Program-made: the position numbers and the translations under genes
Notes under the pieces: model-generated
Told to the model about the DNA's origin: nothing
Database searches by the model: none
What the model saw: the letters and a program-made list of their open reading frames with translations, nothing else
In this document: in pieces, positions 56 through 35,436 of the stretch
Layout of the letters: every line of letters starts with the position of its first letter
Numbering within the stretch: position 1 is the stretch's first letter
Virus record (IMG/VR): IMGVR_UViG_3300045988_138852
DNA length: 35,436 bases
Strand: one strand, 5' to 3'
Source of the DNA: a virus

Positions 56-309
56 AGACTGCATTTGAAATGTATCACACGCTACCATATTTTACATCTG
101 GCGACATAAGAAAGCTGTTTAATGGATGCGCAGGGTCAACTGCAGCGAAAATCGCAAAGCTGACACGCGATGAAATGGCAAGGCGAGAAATCAAGATGTA
201 CTGCGAACATGACAATTATTTAAACAAGGATGTCTTATATGACCTGGCGGGGTTAGACATAAACAGCATCAACAAGTCATACAAGATGTTAGAAAGGAGG
301 ACATTATGA
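25..309 (+). CDS. Hypothetical early protein (94 aa)
   Basis: ORF with RBS gaaaggag 6 nt upstream. Its stop overlaps the next start (ATGA). No family recognised. Confidence 0.55.
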   Translation: MRFPNVRADVKTAFEMYHTLPYFTSGDIRKLFNGCAGSTAAKIAKLTRDEMARREIKMYCEHDNYLNKDVLYDLAGLDINSINKSYKMLERRTL

Positions 310-794
310 AAATCAAATCAATCATACCACCGACACTATTTATAAGTACAGTAATCGCTCTGAACGGCCTAGCAACGGCAATAGACACACCTCAAGTGTA
401 TCAGCAGACGGAATACAAAGTCGTTAGCAATATACAAATTGATGTTAAAGGAATTTCAAACGAAATGATTGACGATATAGCGACAAGAAGTGGTGTAGAC
501 CCAGCTATCGTCAAGGCCATAATCATGGAAGAGTCAGGAGGCAATCCTAATGCGGTAGGAGACAATGGCGAATCAATAGGCTTAATGCAGATACAACCAA
601 AACACCATAAGAAAAAAATGGAAGAACTAGGAATCGTAAGCCTATTTGACCCACAAGAGAACGTGATTCTAGGATGTAGCATTTTGTCAGACCTCTACGA
701 CAAATATGGAAACTACGAGGACGCACTATCAGTATACAACAGTGGTAACACTGAAGACGGAAAGGCTTATGCAGAAAGGATATTGAATAGATGA
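306..794 (+). CDS. Secreted or membrane-anchored lytic transglycosylase (SLT domain)
   Basis: N-terminal hydrophobic signal/anchor (IIPPTLFISTVIALNGLATA). SLT catalytic motif region EESGGNPNAVGDNGESIGLMQIQ...YNSG. RBS aggagg. Confidence 0.8.
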   Translation: MKIKSIIPPTLFISTVIALNGLATAIDTPQVYQQTEYKVVSNIQIDVKGISNEMIDDIATRSGVDPAIVKAIIMEESGGNPNAVGDNGESIGLMQIQPKHHKKKMEELGIVSLFDPQENVILGCSILSDLYDKYGNYEDALSVYNSGNTEDGKAYAERILNR

Positions 795-13834: not shown

Positions 13835-15214
13835 ATGTTTCACAGAATAATAGAGTGGATTAGAAAGGTTTTTAAGGAGCGTGCAGTACAAGGAGAGGTG
13901 CTTAGTACAATTGTCCTAGATGACAAGACAATCGATTACATAGAGTTGTGGTCTGCGATGTATGAAGACAAAGCACCATGGATAAAGGATGATGTGACAA
14001 GCACAGGCATTCCCTCTGCGGTGTCATCGGAACTAGCAAGACTCGTTACGCTTGAGATGGAATCGGAGATTATCGGAAGCAAACGAGCTGATTTTTTAAA
14101 CGCAGCATACCGAAAGGTTTTATCAGAACTAAGGATTCAGACGGAGTATGCGTGTGCGCTTGGAGGAATCATCCTTAAGCCTTATGTACAGGGCGATACA
14201 ATATCCGTTGAATTTATCCAGGCAGATAGATTTGTTCCTACAGGATTTAATAGCTCTGGACAGATAACCTCTTGTCAGTTTGTTGAGCAGGTGGTTCGTA
14301 ACGGAAAGATATACACTAGAGTCGAATCACACGATTTTGATGGAAAGTATTGCGTTATTCAAAACAGAGCTTATGAGAGTAAGCAAAAGGGCGTGCTTGG
14401 TCATCAGATAAATTTGACTGATGTTCCGGAATGGGAGAATCTTGAAGAGCACACGACAATTAAAAATGTGCCGGGCGTATTATTTTCATACTTCAAAATT
14501 CCACAGGCAAATAACAAGAATAGGCAAAGTCCATTCGGAGTGTCTGTCTATTCAAAAGCTGCTGAACTTATTAAGCAGGCTGATGAGCAGTGGGCACGTA
14601 TCATGTGGGAGTTTAAAGGTACGGAACTAGCTGTAGATATGTCCGAGTCACTGTTCAGAAAGGACAGTAACGGAAATACTATTTTGCCCTCTGGCAAAGG
14701 GCGACTATTCCGTCAGTACAGCATAGATACAGGCATATCCGAAAAACCTTTTTATCAAATTTTCAGTCCTGAGATAAGAGACTCAAGTTTATTTAACGGC
14801 TTTAATCAGATATTAAGACGTATTGAGTTTTCATGTGGTCTAGCGTATGGGACATTATCCGATGTTCAAGACGAGGACCGAACGGCTACAGAGGTTTTGT
14901 TTAGCAAGCAGAGATCATATTCTTTCGTATCTCAGATTCAGGAATCGCTGCAGAGTGCACTAGAGGATTTAATTAAGGCGATGGATGTATGGACGAGCCT
15001 ATACAAGCTCGCACCAGCAGGTTCATACGATGTATCATTTAACTTTGATGATAGCTTGATTGTTGACAGCAAGACGGAACATCAGTTGATGATGCAAGAG
15101 GCCACATCTGGGCTGATTCGAAAAGAAATCTATCTGATGAAAAGGTATGGCGTAACAGAGGAGCAGGCAAAAGATATGCTGCCTGAAACTGTGAGAACGC
15201 CTGAGGAAGAGTAA
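13835..15214 (+). CDS. Portal protein (SPP1 gp6-like)
   Basis: 459 aa, immediately after terL, aggagg RBS. Portal-like sequence features and synteny. Confidence 0.8.
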   Translation: MFHRIIEWIRKVFKERAVQGEVLSTIVLDDKTIDYIELWSAMYEDKAPWIKDDVTSTGIPSAVSSELARLVTLEMESEIIGSKRADFLNAAYRKVLSELRIQTEYACALGGIILKPYVQGDTISVEFIQADRFVPTGFNSSGQITSCQFVEQVVRNGKIYTRVESHDFDGKYCVIQNRAYESKQKGVLGHQINLTDVPEWENLEEHTTIKNVPGVLFSYFKIPQANNKNRQSPFGVSVYSKAAELIKQADEQWARIMWEFKGTELAVDMSESLFRKDSNGNTILPSGKGRLFRQYSIDTGISEKPFYQIFSPEIRDSSLFNGFNQILRRIEFSCGLAYGTLSDVQDEDRTATEVLFSKQRSYSFVSQIQESLQSALEDLIKAMDVWTSLYKLAPAGSYDVSFNFDDSLIVDSKTEHQLMMQEATSGLIRKEIYLMKRYGVTEEQAKDMLPETVRTPEEE

Positions 15215-31346: not shown

Positions 31347-32453
31347 TTATATCTTGATTTTGTCTAAAACTTTAACAGCTTTCTCCTGTTCTGCAGGATA
31401 AAAATGGCTATATCTATTTAATGTCTGTTCAATATTTTTATGTCCGAGCCGTCGGCTAATCTCTAAAATATTTATATTATTGTTAGCCAATAGCGAGGCG
31501 TGACTATGTCTAAAGTCATGGATTCTGATGTGATGTAGCCCTGCTCGTTTTGCTGCCTTTTTGTTCACGTTTTCTATGCTCGTGTCCCTAAGCGGTTTAT
31601 ATCCACCAGTTATGTAAAAGTTATCATTAAAGCCGTCAAAATCCTTGCACTGAGCATAGTGCTGCTCAAGCACTCTTTTTAGAGGTTCAGGAACTTGTAA
31701 GGTGCGATTGCTACTCATATTCTTAGGTGGTGTTTCACGGTCCCCTCCGGATAGTTTTTGTGATATGCTTTTGCTAATGGTTATAGCGCCGTCTTTATAA
31801 TCTGACCACCTAAGGGCGTGTATTTCGCCTTTTCTCGCTCCTGTAAAATAAGCAAGCATAAAGAACACATAATAGTCATAAAAACCTTTCTCAAGAGCGA
31901 TTTCGCGGACGTAAACTATATATCGCTTGAACTCATTTGGTGTATAGAATTGTATTACATCTTTCCCTTTATATGGATTCCTGAAATTACCGACCTTATT
32001 TAAAGGATTGCTCTTAAGATATTCTTTTGATACGGCCCAATTCAAAATAGACCTAAATTGACCGTAGATGTTTTTCTTCATAGTGTGGGATAATGGCAAA
32101 TTACCTATTGATAGCTTCCATTCGTTTAGTCTTCGCACGCTAAGTTTATTTAAGCGAATGTCCAAAGGGTAAATGTATTTATAAGTAATTCCCTTAGCTT
32201 TTTTCAGTGTCGATTCCCTTACATCAATTTGTTTAAATTCAAAATATAATTCAATTAGATCCTGGAGCATCATATTGCTATGAACTTGCTCATTTTTGTT
32301 CCTATTTAGTTTTGCTTCTAATTCTTTTGCTGCTGTAAGACCGTAAGCTATACGCGTGAAAGAACGATTTTTGCCACTGTCATCAACATAATTTATTCTT
32401 ACTCTGTATTTAGAAAGCCCATCTTTTTTTTTCTTTGTTTTGTAAATTGGCAT
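31347..32453 (-). CDS. int: Tyrosine recombinase (phage integrase)
   Basis: C-terminal HDFRHSHASLL...LGHKNIEQTLNRYSHF (R, HxxR and Y catalytic residues). ATG at 32453 lies 7 nt after aaggagg. Confidence 0.9.
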   Translation of the reverse strand: MPIYKTKKKKDGLSKYRVRINYVDDSGKNRSFTRIAYGLTAAKELEAKLNRNKNEQVHSNMMLQDLIELYFEFKQIDVRESTLKKAKGITYKYIYPLDIRLNKLSVRRLNEWKLSIGNLPLSHTMKKNIYGQFRSILNWAVSKEYLKSNPLNKVGNFRNPYKGKDVIQFYTPNEFKRYIVYVREIALEKGFYDYYVFFMLAYFTGARKGEIHALRWSDYKDGAITISKSISQKLSGGDRETPPKNMSSNRTLQVPEPLKRVLEQHYAQCKDFDGFNDNFYITGGYKPLRDTSIENVNKKAAKRAGLHHIRIHDFRHSHASLLANNNINILEISRRLGHKNIEQTLNRYSHFYPAEQEKAVKVLDKIKI

Positions 32454-32493
32454 GGCAACCTCCTTGATTTTGGGTACAAAAATACCCCTACAT

Positions 32494-32522
32494 TTGACAT
32501 TCAGGGGCTGCAATGGTACAAT
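32494..32522 (+). promoter_or_regulatory. Near-consensus sigma-70 promoter, divergent from int
   Basis: TTGACA (32494-32499), 17-nt spacer, TG-g-TACAAT (-10 at 32517-32522). Confidence 0.55.
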
Positions 32523-32631: not shown

Positions 32632-33201
32632 TTATTTTTTCGCTTCATATTTTGGTTTTTTTCCATTAGCCATATCGTTAAGAGCTTTTTCATATTGTTT
32701 GGCTTGCTCCGGTGTTAAATATCCGCTAACTCTCATTAAAGTAGCGCCTTGCAAGTAATCATATTCATACACAAGAGGGGCGGATAATGACTGCAGATAG
32801 TCCATTCTTTTTTTTGCAAGGCTATGCGTTTCAAAAACTTCTACATCCACACCAAGAAGATAATTGTCTTTTTCAAATTCTTCAATTGTTTGAAAATCAG
32901 ATACCTCTGCATTATCATAAGCTGTTTGGATAGCTAAAGTATCATTAACTAAAGCTTTGCTTTTATATCCGTTTGGACGACCTAGTAAAAGGTTAGGGTC
33001 AGTCTTTTCATCATAAGTTGTGATTTCTTTCAAAGGGAATCCACCATCTTTTAACATCTGCTCAACTTCTGTGGCTGTCATTCTCTCTAAAATAACATCT
33101 TTCTTTTTATTCGATTTATTCGGCGAAGATGTGTTAGATGAACATGCCGGTAACATAAGAATTAAGACAATTAACATTGAAATACTGAGTGCTTTTTTCA
33201 T
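32632..33201 (-). CDS. Prophage lipoprotein (superinfection-exclusion candidate)
   Basis: Signal peptide MKKALSISMLIVLILMLPAC with lipobox LPAC, then a Ser/Asn/Lys linker. Located between int and the repressor. Confidence 0.75.
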   Translation of the reverse strand: MKKALSISMLIVLILMLPACSSNTSSPNKSNKKKDVILERMTATEVEQMLKDGGFPLKEITTYDEKTDPNLLLGRPNGYKSKALVNDTLAIQTAYDNAEVSDFQTIEEFEKDNYLLGVDVEVFETHSLAKKRMDYLQSLSAPLVYEYDYLQGATLMRVSGYLTPEQAKQYEKALNDMANGKKPKYEAKK

Positions 33202-33292
33202 TTTTTTATCCTTTCATTAAAATAATAACATCTACATTTAAAACTTAGCTCTAAGTTCTATAACATTGCCTAAAAACCTTATAGGAAGTTCT

Positions 33293-33397
33293 TCAGTTTT
33301 GAATTGTTGTAAATAATTTATAGCCAAGTTTATCCGCTAAAGTCCTTTGAGATATTCCTTTTAATCTTCTATAGTATCTAATTTTATCTTTAAAAAT
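33293..33397 (-). pseudogene. Relic of the 5' end of a CI-type HTH repressor gene
   Basis: 33297-33397 aligns without gaps to 33947-34047 (repressor codons 1-34) with about 15 mismatches in 101 nt. ATT replaces the ATG, and there is an in-frame stop after 33 codons (FKDKIRYYRRLKGISQRTLADKLGYKLFTTIQN*). Confidence 0.65.
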
Positions 33398-33411
33398 TGC
33401 TAGATGCTCAT

Positions 33412-34047
33412 TTAAAACATTGAAATCGTTGAGTGGAATACACCAACGCACTCTCCTATTACAGTCATCCCCTCGGCATCGGTTACAATCGGCTCATAGT
33501 CTGCGTTGCATGGGTTGAGTATGATTGTATCCTCTTGCCAAAATACCTTTTTAAGAACAGCTTCGCAGTCAGAGTTAATCCGTACTGCATAGATTTTGCC
33601 ATTCGTATAGTCATAAGTCTTTTTGATAAAAGCTAGATCACCGTTAAATATTCCAGCATCAATCATGCTATCACCACGGACACGCACGCAAAAATCTGCT
33701 TTTACTGAGCTGTCTATAAAAAAGTGTCCTTCAAAGTTCTCTTCGCACCAGGTTCCTTCTCCAGCACAAATATCGCCTAGAATTGGAATAGGGCGAGAAG
33801 CTGGAAACGAAATGTTGCTTATACCTGTGAGGTCAGGGTCAACAGAGTGATTATCATCTGACGTCAATTCTTCAATTGTTACGCCTAGAATATCAGCAAC
33901 CTTTTTAACTGTACCAATAGGAGGGCTTGATGTACCATCTTCCCATTTTTGAATTGTTGTAAATGATTTATAGCCAAGTTTATCAGCAAGAGCCTCTTGA
34001 GAAATTCCTCTTAATTTCCTGTAGAATCTTATTTTATCTTTAAACAT
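33412..34047 (-). CDS. CI-like repressor: XRE HTH plus S24 (LexA-like) autopeptidase
   Basis: N-terminal FYRKLRGISQEALADKLGY...TIQKWEDG HTH. C-terminal VRGDSMIDAGIFNGDLAFIKK (Ser) and AVLKKV (Lys). Confidence 0.9.
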   Translation of the reverse strand: MFKDKIRFYRKLRGISQEALADKLGYKSFTTIQKWEDGTSSPPIGTVKKVADILGVTIEELTSDDNHSVDPDLTGISNISFPASRPIPILGDICAGEGTWCEENFEGHFFIDSSVKADFCVRVRGDSMIDAGIFNGDLAFIKKTYDYTNGKIYAVRINSDCEAVLKKVFWQEDTIILNPCNADYEPIVTDAEGMTVIGECVGVFHSTISMF

Positions 34048-34062
34048 AATCACCTCTATGTA

Positions 34063-34079
34063 ATAGAATTGTTTTCAAG
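34063..34079. promoter_or_regulatory. Degenerate operator (half-site conserved)
   Basis: atagaa ttgtt ttcaag. The right arm is perfect against the CTTGAA-N5-TTCAAG consensus. Confidence 0.35.
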
Positions 34080-34082
34080 CTG

Positions 34083-34110
34083 ATTATAACATTTTTTCAA
34101 TATTTTTCAA
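34083..34110 (-). promoter_or_regulatory. Repressor (maintenance-type) promoter
   Basis: Minus strand ttgaaa, 16-nt spacer, tg-t-tataat (plus-strand attata at 34083-34088, tttcaa at 34105-34110). Confidence 0.5.
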
Positions 34111-34116
34111 CAAAAA

Positions 34117-34133
34117 CTTGAAAATAATTCAAA
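34117..34133. promoter_or_regulatory. Operator site (palindrome)
   Basis: cttgaa aataa ttcaaa. Confidence 0.55.
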
Positions 34134-34139
34134 TAATGC

Positions 34140-34168
34140 TTGACACTTGAAAATGATTCAAGTAATAT
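34140..34168 (+). promoter_or_regulatory. Early lytic promoter (PR-like)
   Basis: TTGACA (34140-34145), 17-nt spacer, TAATAT (34163-34168). The spacer is exactly one operator palindrome. Confidence 0.65.
34146..34162. promoter_or_regulatory. Operator site (perfect 6+6 palindrome) inside the PR spacer
   Basis: cttgaa aatga ttcaag. Confidence 0.6.
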
Positions 34169-34192
34169 ATAGCTACAAGGAGGTGAGACAAA

Positions 34193-34384
34193 TTGAAAAA
34201 AAGCCTAAAGGAACTACGAGCAAGGGAAAATAAAACACAAATCGAAATGGCTGGACTTTTAGGAGTATCCGTTCAAACATACAACACCTGGGAGAACAAC
34301 TTCAAGAAGCTCAGTATCGAAAAAGCAAAAAAAGTAGCGTCTATACTCAATGCGTCACTAGATGAGATTTACATCGAAGAGTAA
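34193..34384 (+). CDS. Cro-like XRE-family HTH regulator
   Basis: TTG start 7 nt after aaggaggtg. KTQIEMAGLLGVSVQTYNTWEN HTH. Divergent from the repressor. Confidence 0.8.
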   Translation: MKKSLKELRARENKTQIEMAGLLGVSVQTYNTWENNFKKLSIEKAKKVASILNASLDEIYIEE

Positions 34385-34401
34385 TTTTTTTTACCCTTTT
34401 A

Positions 34402-34418
34402 CTTGAACAATATTCAAG
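34402..34418. promoter_or_regulatory. Distal operator copy downstream of the cro-like gene
   Basis: cttgaa caata ttcaag, with the flanks a...taat shared with the 34146 site. Confidence 0.5.
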
Positions 34419-34447
34419 TAATCGCACCAGCCGAGAAAGGAGGAGGG

Positions 34448-34657
34448 ATGAAAGAAGAAAAGAAATTAGTATCAGCGGTAAGACCACGTGGAACTGATGA
34501 GGCCTGCGTAATACAAGTTATAAGGACAAAATCGCTTGTAGGCGCAGGCACTCCTGATGATTTATCTAAAATAATGGTTCAATACTGGGATTTTGAAGGA
34601 AATCTATTGGCTACTTCGTATCACCAGCAAGCTTTCTCGAAACAGGCGGATGCTTAA
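34448..34657 (+). CDS. Hypothetical early protein (69 aa)
   Basis: ATG 34448 after gaaaggaggaggg. Its 3' end overlaps the convergent gene by 47 nt. Confidence 0.45.
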   Translation: MKEEKKLVSAVRPRGTDEACVIQVIRTKSLVGAGTPDDLSKIMVQYWDFEGNLLATSYHQQAFSKQADA

Positions 34658-35309
34658 TCATATATTGAACCTCAATAGACTTTATGAAGATTTCCATGTA
34701 ATTCTTCAGAAGAGCAAAATCGTGTTCGGGATACTTGCGTTTGTAGTGAGTGTAATCATTTCCGAGAATGCGAACAACATCAGCACTATTGGTTAGCGCT
34801 TCGTTAGGTAGATAGCTGGAAATGGCATCAAACAAGGTTTTATTTACGACTTCATCCTCGGGTTTTCCGAGTTCGTGAATAGCAAAGTCCTTTATCAGAA
34901 CCTCAAGTGCAGAACGATAGCCTATAGCAGCAAGCTCTAAAGAACCAGCGAACTCTGACCTTTCGGCTTGATTGTAAATATACATGAACCTTTTGGATAA
35001 AGCTCGTAGGTTGTCGTTATCGAATAGTTCGACATTGGATTCAGGGTAAACAAAAATGTTTTTTGCATCAGTAGGTTCATCTAAACGACGATCTGATATT
35101 GACAGAGTTTGTTTGCCACAATCAGTGCACTTGTACATTCCAACCAAGAACCAACTAGTATCGGATTGAACAACAGCAGATGTAGACAAAATGAAATCAG
35201 TTGAAATTCCACAATGTGGACAAATGATGGGTTTTTCATAACCAAAAGAATAATAAGCCGAGTATTCTGAAGCGGATTTGACAGTGAATTTTTTATAACT
35301 TCTTTTCAT
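34611..35309 (-). CDS. Zinc-ribbon plus DUF4145-like domain protein (defence/abortive-infection candidate)
   Basis: N-terminal CPHC...CTDC. C-terminal helical domain with AIGYRSALEVLIKDF and VRILGNDYTHY (the R..GN...H motif of DUF4145). aaggaga RBS. Confidence 0.7.
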   Translation of the reverse strand: MKRSYKKFTVKSASEYSAYYSFGYEKPIICPHCGISTDFILSTSAVVQSDTSWFLVGMYKCTDCGKQTLSISDRRLDEPTDAKNIFVYPESNVELFDNDNLRALSKRFMYIYNQAERSEFAGSLELAAIGYRSALEVLIKDFAIHELGKPEDEVVNKTLFDAISSYLPNEALTNSADVVRILGNDYTHYKRKYPEHDFALLKNYMEIFIKSIEVQYMIKHPPVSRKLAGDTK

Positions 35310-35342
35310 ATCGTTCTCCTTAAAATAATGGTCTATCTAAAA

Positions 35343-35371
35343 AGTATATCACAGATATGAAGATATGAAGA
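35343..35371 (-). promoter_or_regulatory. Extended -10 promoter for the DUF4145 gene
   Basis: Minus strand tcttca, 17-nt spacer, tg-a-tatact. Contains tgtgatata, the same 9-mer as in the 10401 and 10471 repeats. Confidence 0.4.
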
Positions 35372-35381
35372 GATTAAGAAA

Positions 35382-35436
35382 AAAACAATAGAAAGGAGCC
35401 ACAAAATGAGATTTCCAAACGTGAGAGCGGATGTAA
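35382..35436. repeat. Right copy of the 55-nt terminal direct repeat
   Basis: Identical to bases 1-55. Confidence 0.95.

Follow-up and report, generated by a model that had tools for sequence, protein, structure and literature searches.

The window analysed here is the whole 35,436-nucleotide (nt) sequence of the viral record IMGVR_UViG_3300045988_138852, and the element in question is a minus-strand gene of 232 amino acids (aa) whose product joins an N-terminal zinc ribbon to a C-terminal DUF4145 domain (ZnR-DUF4145 gene, Table 1). Positions 1-55 of the record are identical to 35382-35436; because of this 55-bp direct terminal repeat the genome was judged circular, and the window holds the entire genome, in circular permutation (about 35.38 kb), of a temperate phage. 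An original prediction, made from the sequence, had described the open reading frame (ORF) as a minus-strand interruption, with a good ribosome-binding site, of an otherwise plus-strand early region. This description holds: a Shine-Dalgarno sequence stands 6 nt before the start codon, and the ORF is flanked by plus-strand cro, a plus-strand small ORF and plus-strand early genes that begin at 35406. Since many homologues have a like length and the AlphaFold2 (AF2) model reaches a mean predicted local distance difference test (pLDDT) score of 88, we concluded that the ORF is a genuine gene.

Table 1. Features of the ZnR-DUF4145 locus and of its surroundings in the window.
Feature	Position	Strand	Basis or remark
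ZnR-DUF4145 gene, ATG start, 232 aa	34611-35309	-	ORF list, sequence; stop TAG 34613-34611
Shine-Dalgarno AAGGAG	35321-35316	-	sequence; 6 nt 5′ of ATG
Cys4 zinc-ribbon knuckles	35118-35222	-	C30-P-H-C33 35222-35211; C61-T-D-C64 35129-35118
DUF4145/HEPN helical domain	34710-34943	-	Pfam match aa 123-200; helices to about aa 219
Predicted catalytic motif R180-I-L-G-N184-D-Y-T-H188 (R-x3-N-x3-H)	34746-34772	-	conservation, register with RAZR
Extended -10 TGaTATACT	35351-35343	-	sequence; 34 nt 5′ of ATG
Weak -35-like TCTTCA, 3/6	35371-35366	-	sequence
Cassette of ~739 bp (gene and promoter)	34627-35365	.	absent from closely related phages
Small early ORF, 69 aa, phrog_14088	34448-34657	+	after cro; 3′ end overlaps the 3′ end of the ZnR-DUF4145 gene by 47 nt
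Cro-like helix-turn-helix (HTH) gene, first of the early lytic operon	34193-34384	+	Pfam HTH_3 2.9e-13
CI-like repressor (HTH_3 and Peptidase_S24)	33412-34053	-	Pfam; orientation same as ZnR-DUF4145 gene
Predicted lipoprotein, 189 aa	32632-33201	-	signal peptide ending LPAC/SS; between integrase and repressor
Integrase	31347-32513	-	
Early ORF, 93 aa	start 35406, crosses junction into position 1	+	

In the AF2 model the protein is divided into a beta-rich N-terminal domain (roughly aa 1-90) and a helical C-terminal domain (helices 99-219). The four-cysteine zinc ribbon (CPHC...CTDC) noticed in the original prediction was found at C30/C33 and C61/C64 and is conserved in 41 homologues, where C30, C33 and C64 are invariant and C61 is conserved in at least 90%; Zn-ribbon Pfam families also match it weakly. 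Matches of the window-clade profile to C2H2 zinc fingers in the PDB (Aart, CTCF) were rejected as spurious, because they arise from the CxxC spacing. As for the C-terminal domain, it had been associated with DUF4145 through two motifs, AIGYRSALEVLIKDF (aa 128-142) and VRILGNDYTHY (aa 179-189), and both lie in the helical part. The hmmscan search that had been suggested as a check gave a match to PF13643 (DUF4145, HEPN clan CL0291) that exceeds the gathering cut-off, with 24.7 versus 23.1 bits (E=2.5e-5, profile 10-82 of 88), and the same match is precomputed on most database homologues. DUF4145 is a HEPN-superfamily domain (PMC3710099). Consistent with this, the C-terminal domain is all-alpha in the AF2 model and retrieved solved HEPN structures in Foldseek searches (2q00, probability 0.98, TMt 0.60; 1o3u, 0.98 and 0.67; 1ufb, 0.95; also HepT 5yep/7bxo), at E-values that are weak (0.17-0.6) because only half of the query aligns. 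Within this domain R180, N184, D185 and H188 are invariant in the window clade (A2, 41 sequences).

The same architecture has a characterised prototype, which makes the novelty implied by the original prediction lower. PD-T7-4, from E. coli UMB1727, came out of a functional selection in E. coli (Vassallo et al. 2022, PMC9519451) and was renamed RAZR, for ring-activated zinc-finger RNase, in 2026 (Zhang et al., Nature 2026, PMC13017515; PDB 9y9c). According to PMC9519451, as cited in PMC13017515, it acts by abortive infection (Abi). In RAZR, an N-terminal Cys4 zinc-finger domain sets phage specificity, and a linker leads to a C-terminal DUF4145/HEPN RNase in which the changes R146A/H154A abolish defence (PMC13017515). 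The protein is harmless when over-produced alone and needs no antitoxin; a 24-mer assembles around ~170 Å rings of phage portal or Erf-like recombinase (Gp77), and the activated enzyme cleaves single-stranded RNA non-specifically, so that translation stops and the infection is aborted, while the portal of SECphi27 does not trigger it (PMC13017515).

Several lines of comparison point from the window protein to RAZR. The PADLOC PD-T7-4 model (PDLC04109) was its best match in the defence library (E=1.4e-5, 22.7 bits, aa 27-188 on profile 13-154 of 211), and the alignment runs from the first zinc knuckle to the catalytic motif, so that both domains are spanned. A phmmer alignment to RAZR chain 9y9c_OA pairs ADVVRILGNDYTH with ADICRIVGNQAVH, by which R180 and H188 would correspond to R146 and H154; the spacing is the same in both proteins (Rx7H), the canonical HEPN motif being Rx4-6H. 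The suggestion that the conserved Arg/His pair is HEPN-like is thus strengthened, as DUF4145 belongs to the HEPN superfamily and the predicted motif lies in register with essential residues of RAZR. Both are single proteins of ~220-230 aa in which an N-terminal Cys4 zinc ribbon is followed by a linker with a conserved Pro and by a C-terminal DUF4145/HEPN domain; both have identical R-x3-N-x3-H spacing in the context AD[IV]xRI[LV]GN...H; and an own promoter in the published RAZR work is paralleled here by a conserved promoter element. The proline is P89, invariant at the domain boundary, which matches in position the Pro that opens the alignment of the linkers of RAZR and of clade B, an intermediate group.

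Clade B consists of ~223-aa ZnR-DUF4145 proteins with the signature SPKASATLSRRCLQGMIRDF...LRRIGNIGAH, located in the identical slot of many related prophages (for instance, L128 3167-3838 and L176 4175-4858). They share with the window gene the slot, after cro and convergent with the same small ORF, as well as size, architecture and promoter type; unlike the window clade, they are clear PD-T7-4 family members, matching the PD-T7-4 model over the full length at 7.6e-18 and RAZR chain 9y9c at 5.6e-13. Comparison of the window clade with clade B by hhalign gave 95.6% probability (E=1.2e-8) from the second zinc knuckle through the catalytic motif, with ~27% identity over 114 aligned columns. The link to the RAZR family rests on this intermediate clade because the direct comparisons, given below, are weak. 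From these alignments the 232-aa protein is placed in a divergent subfamily that is sister to RAZR, rather than being called a proven orthologue. By analogy with validated PD-T7-4/RAZR, which has the same Cys4 zinc ribbon and DUF4145 architecture, the proposal of a single-gene defence or Abi candidate would stand.

Variants of the motif were also seen in the family. Some subclades are without the canonical catalytic Arg, as in Streptococcus phage Spn1 (L002 3944-4633, SAYIGNDEGHY), and in loci L080-L095 the Arg is displaced by two residues (LATRSAWIGNDEAHY). These subclades retain the N, the H and the antisense slot and receive no match from the PD-T7-4 model; to judge by their motifs, they may be inactive or mechanistically different.

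The extended -10 element reported upstream on the minus strand is present, preceded by a -35-like hexamer (Table 1). A generic sigma-70 promoter scan of the locus did not call a promoter for the gene, because the -35 is weak. We examined 137 distinct upstream regions of homologous genes for TGnTAnnnT, taking an equal-length distal segment and the opposite strand as controls. Results showed that the element occurs 18-62 nt 5′ of the start in 96 of the 137 regions (72/109 window-type and 24/28 RAZR-type), compared with 3/137 in the distal segment (3/109 and 0/28) and 2/137 on the opposite strand (1/109 and 1/28). Its positions peak sharply at -50 to -31, and the sequence around it is otherwise unconserved across the family. 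Enrichment of the element within unconserved surroundings indicates that TGnTAnnnT is a selected promoter element. In the window, the promoter region also contains a tandem repeat, TTCATATC-TTCATATC (35343-35366, minus strand), and a 5-3-5 palindrome, ATATC-TGT-GATAT, overlaps the extended -10. This palindrome, which is identical in locus L004 and reads ATATC-TAT-GATAT in L017, could be an operator, kept only in relatives too close to judge by.

Comparison with related phages delimited the element. In blastn alignments with three close relatives (L097, L101 and L103), homology ends at 34626 and restarts at 35366, the flanks are 85-98% identical, and ~7 bp stand in place of positions 34627-35365; in these relatives, with the cassette absent, the next early gene comes straight after the small ORF. 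Since exactly this segment is missing from the relatives, gene and -10 element would form a single 739-bp moron cassette. The precise indel between collinear phages, together with the conserved extended -10, agrees with the earlier proposal of a moron with its own promoter, and by this comparison 34627-35365 is a discrete moron cassette. A 99% identical copy was found in another metagenome (L016), and base composition did not distinguish the cassette as foreign. The contig IMGVR_UViG_3300009962_000087 is 99% identical.

All inspected loci for which gene calls or annotation existed show the gene next to the immunity switch and on the strand opposite to the early genes. Its usual position, in Anaerostipes and pneumococcal (Streptococcus) phages and in many gut prophages, is one small ORF downstream of cro; in Lactobacillus phage JNU_P10 it is placed after two same-strand regulator genes. 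The flanking modules vary among loci in integrase type, repressor type, replication modules and integrase-side cargo (Abi_2, TIR/SLATT, NYN and PemK-like genes were seen). A rearranged form was encountered in IMGVR_UViG_3300007648_000139 (L017 5001-6788), where the ORF, in a copy with 90% identity, forms one reading frame of 595 aa with the integrase, and where the lipoprotein gene, cI, cro and the small ORF have all been lost; either this phage derives from another by deletion of the immunity region or the assembly is chimeric.

Taken together, we estimate at about 65% the probability that the gene encodes a lysogen-expressed, RAZR-like single-protein Abi RNase whose zinc ribbon senses a protein of the invader. 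What supports this proposal are the domain composition, the conservation of the catalytic motif, the homology chain, the nature of the cassette, the promoter and the antisense position. In a lysogen, the extended -10 of the cassette would drive transcription of the gene, parallel to that of the repressor gene and opposite to the early operon, which is then silent; as the early promoter is repressed, nothing would oppose the cassette promoter and the gene could therefore be expressed. Before infection, the ZnR-HEPN protein would be inactive. Upon infection, the N-terminal Cys4 zinc ribbon would bind an invader protein, which in the case of RAZR is a homo-oligomeric ring (portal, Erf-like recombinase), and oligomerisation driven by this binding would bring the C-terminal HEPN domains into an active arrangement, in which R180 and H188 may form a composite RNase site. 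RNA would then be cleaved, translation would stop and the infected cell would yield no phage.

A number of observations weigh against this interpretation. Similarity to RAZR itself is distant: direct phmmer comparison with 9y9c gave E=0.024, the window-clade profile did not retrieve 9y9c from PDB sequences at E<=1, hhalign of the clade profile with RAZR residues 64-195 gave 21% probability, in the right register, and Foldseek with the full model against the PDB gave no match at E<=1e-3, with 9y9c outside the top 50. The N-terminal domain is ~25 aa longer than the RAZR zinc finger, cannot be aligned with it before the first knuckle, is the most divergent part of the protein and corresponds to the part that varies most in RAZR, which implies that the trigger, and even the ring-sensing principle, may differ from those of RAZR. 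Furthermore, DS-38 indicates that defence proteins with a zinc finger (ZnF) and HEPN can use unrelated Zn fingers (bioRxiv 10.1101/2025.01.08.631726). Finally, the protein matches phrog_1305 (2e-36), whose PHROGs family label is 'DNA binding protein'.

This label, which RefSeq also gives to homologues in Streptococcus and Aeribacillus phages, suggests another function, that of a lysis-lysogeny regulator. The product would be a zinc-ribbon nucleic-acid binder modulating early transcripts or the immunity region, or else the antisense transcript would stabilise lysogeny by crossing the small ORF and cro towards cI. The site of the gene, always beside the immunity switch and in cI orientation, would suit such a role, as would the subclades without the catalytic Arg (pneumococcal Spn1) and the outcome of a generic scan, which found no terminator-like site between the gene and the convergent small ORF and cro. 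Nevertheless, the 'DNA binding' label appears to be based on the zinc ribbon alone, the R/N/H triad is invariant in the window clade, homology leads to a validated Abi RNase, and close relatives function without the cassette, as would be expected of an accessory gene more than of a core regulator. We consider regulation very unlikely to be the role of the gene.

HEPN domains are also common as toxins of toxin-antitoxin (TA) systems (PMC3710099), and the neighbouring cargo slot of related prophages can hold PemK-like and MqsA-like TA genes. The product could accordingly be an addiction toxin that stabilises the prophage or, in a variant of the idea, an RNase serving the phage's own lytic cycle (host shut-off, RNA processing). 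No nucleotidyltransferase family stood beside the homologues in any fetched locus, and the window neighbours covered by the family scan, cro and the 69-aa ORF, contain no minimal nucleotidyltransferase (MNT), the antitoxin of HEPN-MNT type II/VII systems; no neighbour of another antitoxin type is present either, and the sole conserved neighbour also occurs without the gene. The RAZR prototype is, in addition, non-toxic when over-produced alone (PMC13017515), and a part in the lytic programme is disfavoured because the gene is antisense to the lytic operon and has its own promoter. This explanation has, in our opinion, very little chance of being right. Both the regulator and the addiction toxin fit the invariant triad, the accessory nature of the gene and its homology less well than the RAZR-like Abi RNase does.

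An Abi gene carried by a prophage raises the question of how the carrier avoids it. On induction, the early transcript would read ~740 nt antisense through the ZnR-DUF4145 gene to reach the replication genes, and convergent transcription together with a full-length antisense RNA would be expected to turn the defence gene down. Tolerance might also come from a variant of the phage's own portal that does not trigger the protein, just as the Gifsy-1 tail tip does not trigger HepS (PMC13043305), or from the small ORF. Together, the small ORF and convergent transcription are a concrete candidate for the way in which the prophage avoids its own Abi gene.

We then considered the small ORF itself, which the original prediction had not mentioned. 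Searches of Pfam, NCBIfam, PDB sequences and Foldseek gave no significant match. Its AF2 model is a three-stranded beta-meander (pLDDT 78), and resemblances to annexin and T7 gp1.2 were discarded as noise-level (best Foldseek E~0.35-2). Its 226 database homologues share the conserved core RPRGTDxAxVIQVIxTKSxxGxGTxxDxxRxVxQYWDFxGNLLA. Among 78 viral loci found via the small ORF, which include many near-duplicates so that the counts are not independent samples, 58 hold a convergent ZnR-DUF4145 gene (31 window-type and 27 RAZR-type); in the other 20 the slot is empty, and no evident substitute cargo was noticed there. Wherever both genes occur in one locus they are directly convergent, with a gap of -58 to +119 nt; the exceptions amount to one viral locus and none of the genome loci. 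The commonest small-ORF variant, P0180, which is indexed in 204 collection blocks, has an adjacent ZnR-DUF4145 gene in 8 of the 8 distinct contexts shown. We rejected the view that the small ORF is unrelated to the defence gene, which had been suggested by 49 of 80 loci being without a window-type DUF4145, since 27 of those hold a RAZR-type gene. Seen from the other side, the small ORF accompanies about a third of the window-type loci (25/76 viral and 17/47 in species-representative genomes, ranging from Clostridia to Enterococcus and Limosilactobacillus), and it was not detectable in 50/76 viral and 30/47 genomic loci. Overall, the association is real and notable, yet compatible with plain linkage in one phage lineage.

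These data allow a tentative extension of the RAZR-like Abi reading, in which the locus would be a two-part unit with the ZnR-HEPN protein as Abi effector and the convergent small ORF as a self-immunity off-switch. The small protein, encoded by the second gene of the early lytic transcript, would act upon induction as a natural anti-RAZR factor and would keep suicide from being set off by the portal or recombinase of the phage itself, convergent transcription adding to the effect; for incoming phages in which the small ORF occurs alone, it would serve to counter prophage immunity of the RAZR type. The convergent arrangement and its frequency among viral small-ORF loci argue for such a unit, and the pair is kept where the modules to either side (integrase, repressor, replication) have been exchanged and recurs in the species-representative genomes counted above. 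The small ORF is, moreover, better conserved (50-70% identity) than the fast-evolving ZnR-DUF4145 protein (30-50%). Precedents exist in BstA/aba (PMC8585504) and in the evasion of HepS by a trigger variant in Gifsy-1 (PMC13043305). On the other hand, the small ORF is intact and 93-98% identical in the nearest cassette-free relatives (L097-L105) and therefore has a function apart from the defence gene. About two-thirds of the window-type loci are without it, the near-duplicate loci make the counts non-independent, the linkage could reflect shared ancestry of the early region of one lineage, and neither structure nor family gives a clue to its function, the T7 gp1.2 resemblance not being significant. 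RAZR, being non-toxic alone, requires no antitoxin (PMC13017515); for this reason, and because the small ORF persists unbroken where the gene is absent, we discarded the idea that it is a classical antitoxin. Hence, the two-part unit seems to us rather unlikely. If true, it would provide the first inhibitor of the RAZR family and explain in general how ring-making phages can carry a portal- or recombinase-sensing Abi.

The locus was also compared with other named systems. HepS, of the Salmonella prophage Gifsy-1, is likewise a prophage-borne single-HEPN-protein Abi that senses a structural protein and cleaves RNA, and there, too, one must ask how the prophage that encodes it escapes being targeted itself (PMC13043305); by description, it differs in having a single HEPN domain without a zinc ribbon and in being a tetrameric anticodon nuclease triggered by tail-tip protein J (PMC13043305). 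A PDB search with the window protein at E<=1 gave no HEPN chain other than 9y9c. BstA/aba resembles the proposed arrangement in that a prophage Abi protein has beside it an element for self-immunity, thanks to which the carrier phage can replicate (PMC8585504); BstA is unrelated, without homology, and aba, rather than encoding a small protein, acts as DNA within the bstA locus (PMC8585504). DS-38 (ZnF and HEPN; bioRxiv 10.1101/2025.01.08.631726), BxaP (DUF4145 and HEAT; PMC10799925) and the fusions of DUF4145 to type I restriction-modification subunits (PMC3710099) share a DUF4145-type HEPN as presumed effector of anti-phage systems, and differ in their other N-terminal or partner domains; DS-38 and BxaP were compared by description only. 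From RAZR, finally, the window gene differs in context, as it occurs in Gram-positive gut Firmicutes, antisense in a prophage early operon, and is paired in about a third of its loci with a conserved small ORF.

The family is large. A word-indexed search found 372 homologues of the 232-aa protein, and an exhaustive search found 2287 representatives of 50%-identity clusters at E<=1e-3 (1961 at E<=1e-10), nearly all of them ~215-240 aa long among the best 150 of the 2287; a BFVD search with the full model gave two full-length viral homologues. Homologues with named hosts come from Bacillota only (Lachnospiraceae, Oscillospiraceae, Peptoniphilus, Anaerococcus, Enterococcus, Listeria, Limosilactobacillus and Metabacillus). 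Already in 2013, DUF4145 was listed as fused to a zinc ribbon in Firmicutes and as present in dsDNA viruses (PMC3710099, Table 1). Because this branch scores poorly with the PD-T7-4 model (E=1.4e-5 for the window protein, while other members go as low as 7e-3 or give no match), defence annotation may well miss it. The discovery is incremental, inasmuch as the type of system and its likely mechanism were already known and a prophage-borne Abi moron is ordinary in principle. RAZR/PD-T7-4 has so far been characterised only in Enterobacteria, and the locus is useful as evidence that RAZR-type immunity would occur widely, and at a fixed site, in prophages of Gram-positive bacteria: temperate phages of gut and rumen Firmicutes carry a large divergent branch of RAZR architecture as a standard accessory cassette. 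This branch also offers a natural series of diverged zinc-ribbon sensors for probing recognition in Gram-positive phages.

With respect to the rest of the genome, the early genes encode an SLT transglycosylase, an SbcC-like ATPase, a PDDEXK exonuclease, an ERCC4 nuclease and a primase/helicase, and are followed in gene order by genes for terminase, an SPP1-type portal (13835-15214), head, tail and lysis. When 33000-35436 was compared with GenBank phages by megablast there were zero matches, and similarity to phages of Anaerostipes, Lactobacillus, Fusobacterium and Streptococcus was found at the protein level only, with at most 40% identity; as far as these comparisons go, the phage is not among the described ones. 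Its host probably belongs to the Clostridia. The predicted lipoprotein gene lies in the slot between integrase and repressor that is the usual site of superinfection-exclusion lipoproteins (Ltp-type) in Gram-positive prophages. Its product has no Pfam family and only noise-level NCBIfam matches, and in related prophages the slot is filled by Abi_2, TIR/SLATT, NYN, T5orf172 or PemK-like cargo.

Between the lipoprotein gene and cI, a 52-aa ORF (33293-33451, minus strand) duplicates the HTH with which the CI-like repressor begins at its N-terminus (25 identities in 33 aa), and ~105 nt of its DNA are similar to 33944-34047, as in a truncated second repressor 5′ end. It is probably the scar of an immunity-region exchange. 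In the relative L097, 33002-33844 is shared at 98.6% and divergence extends over 33845-34385. Last, the SLT-type lytic transglycosylase gene (306-794, plus strand; PF01464, 7.8e-23) is located within the early operon and not with the lysis or tail genes, and it occupies the same place in related prophages L004 and L176-L183.

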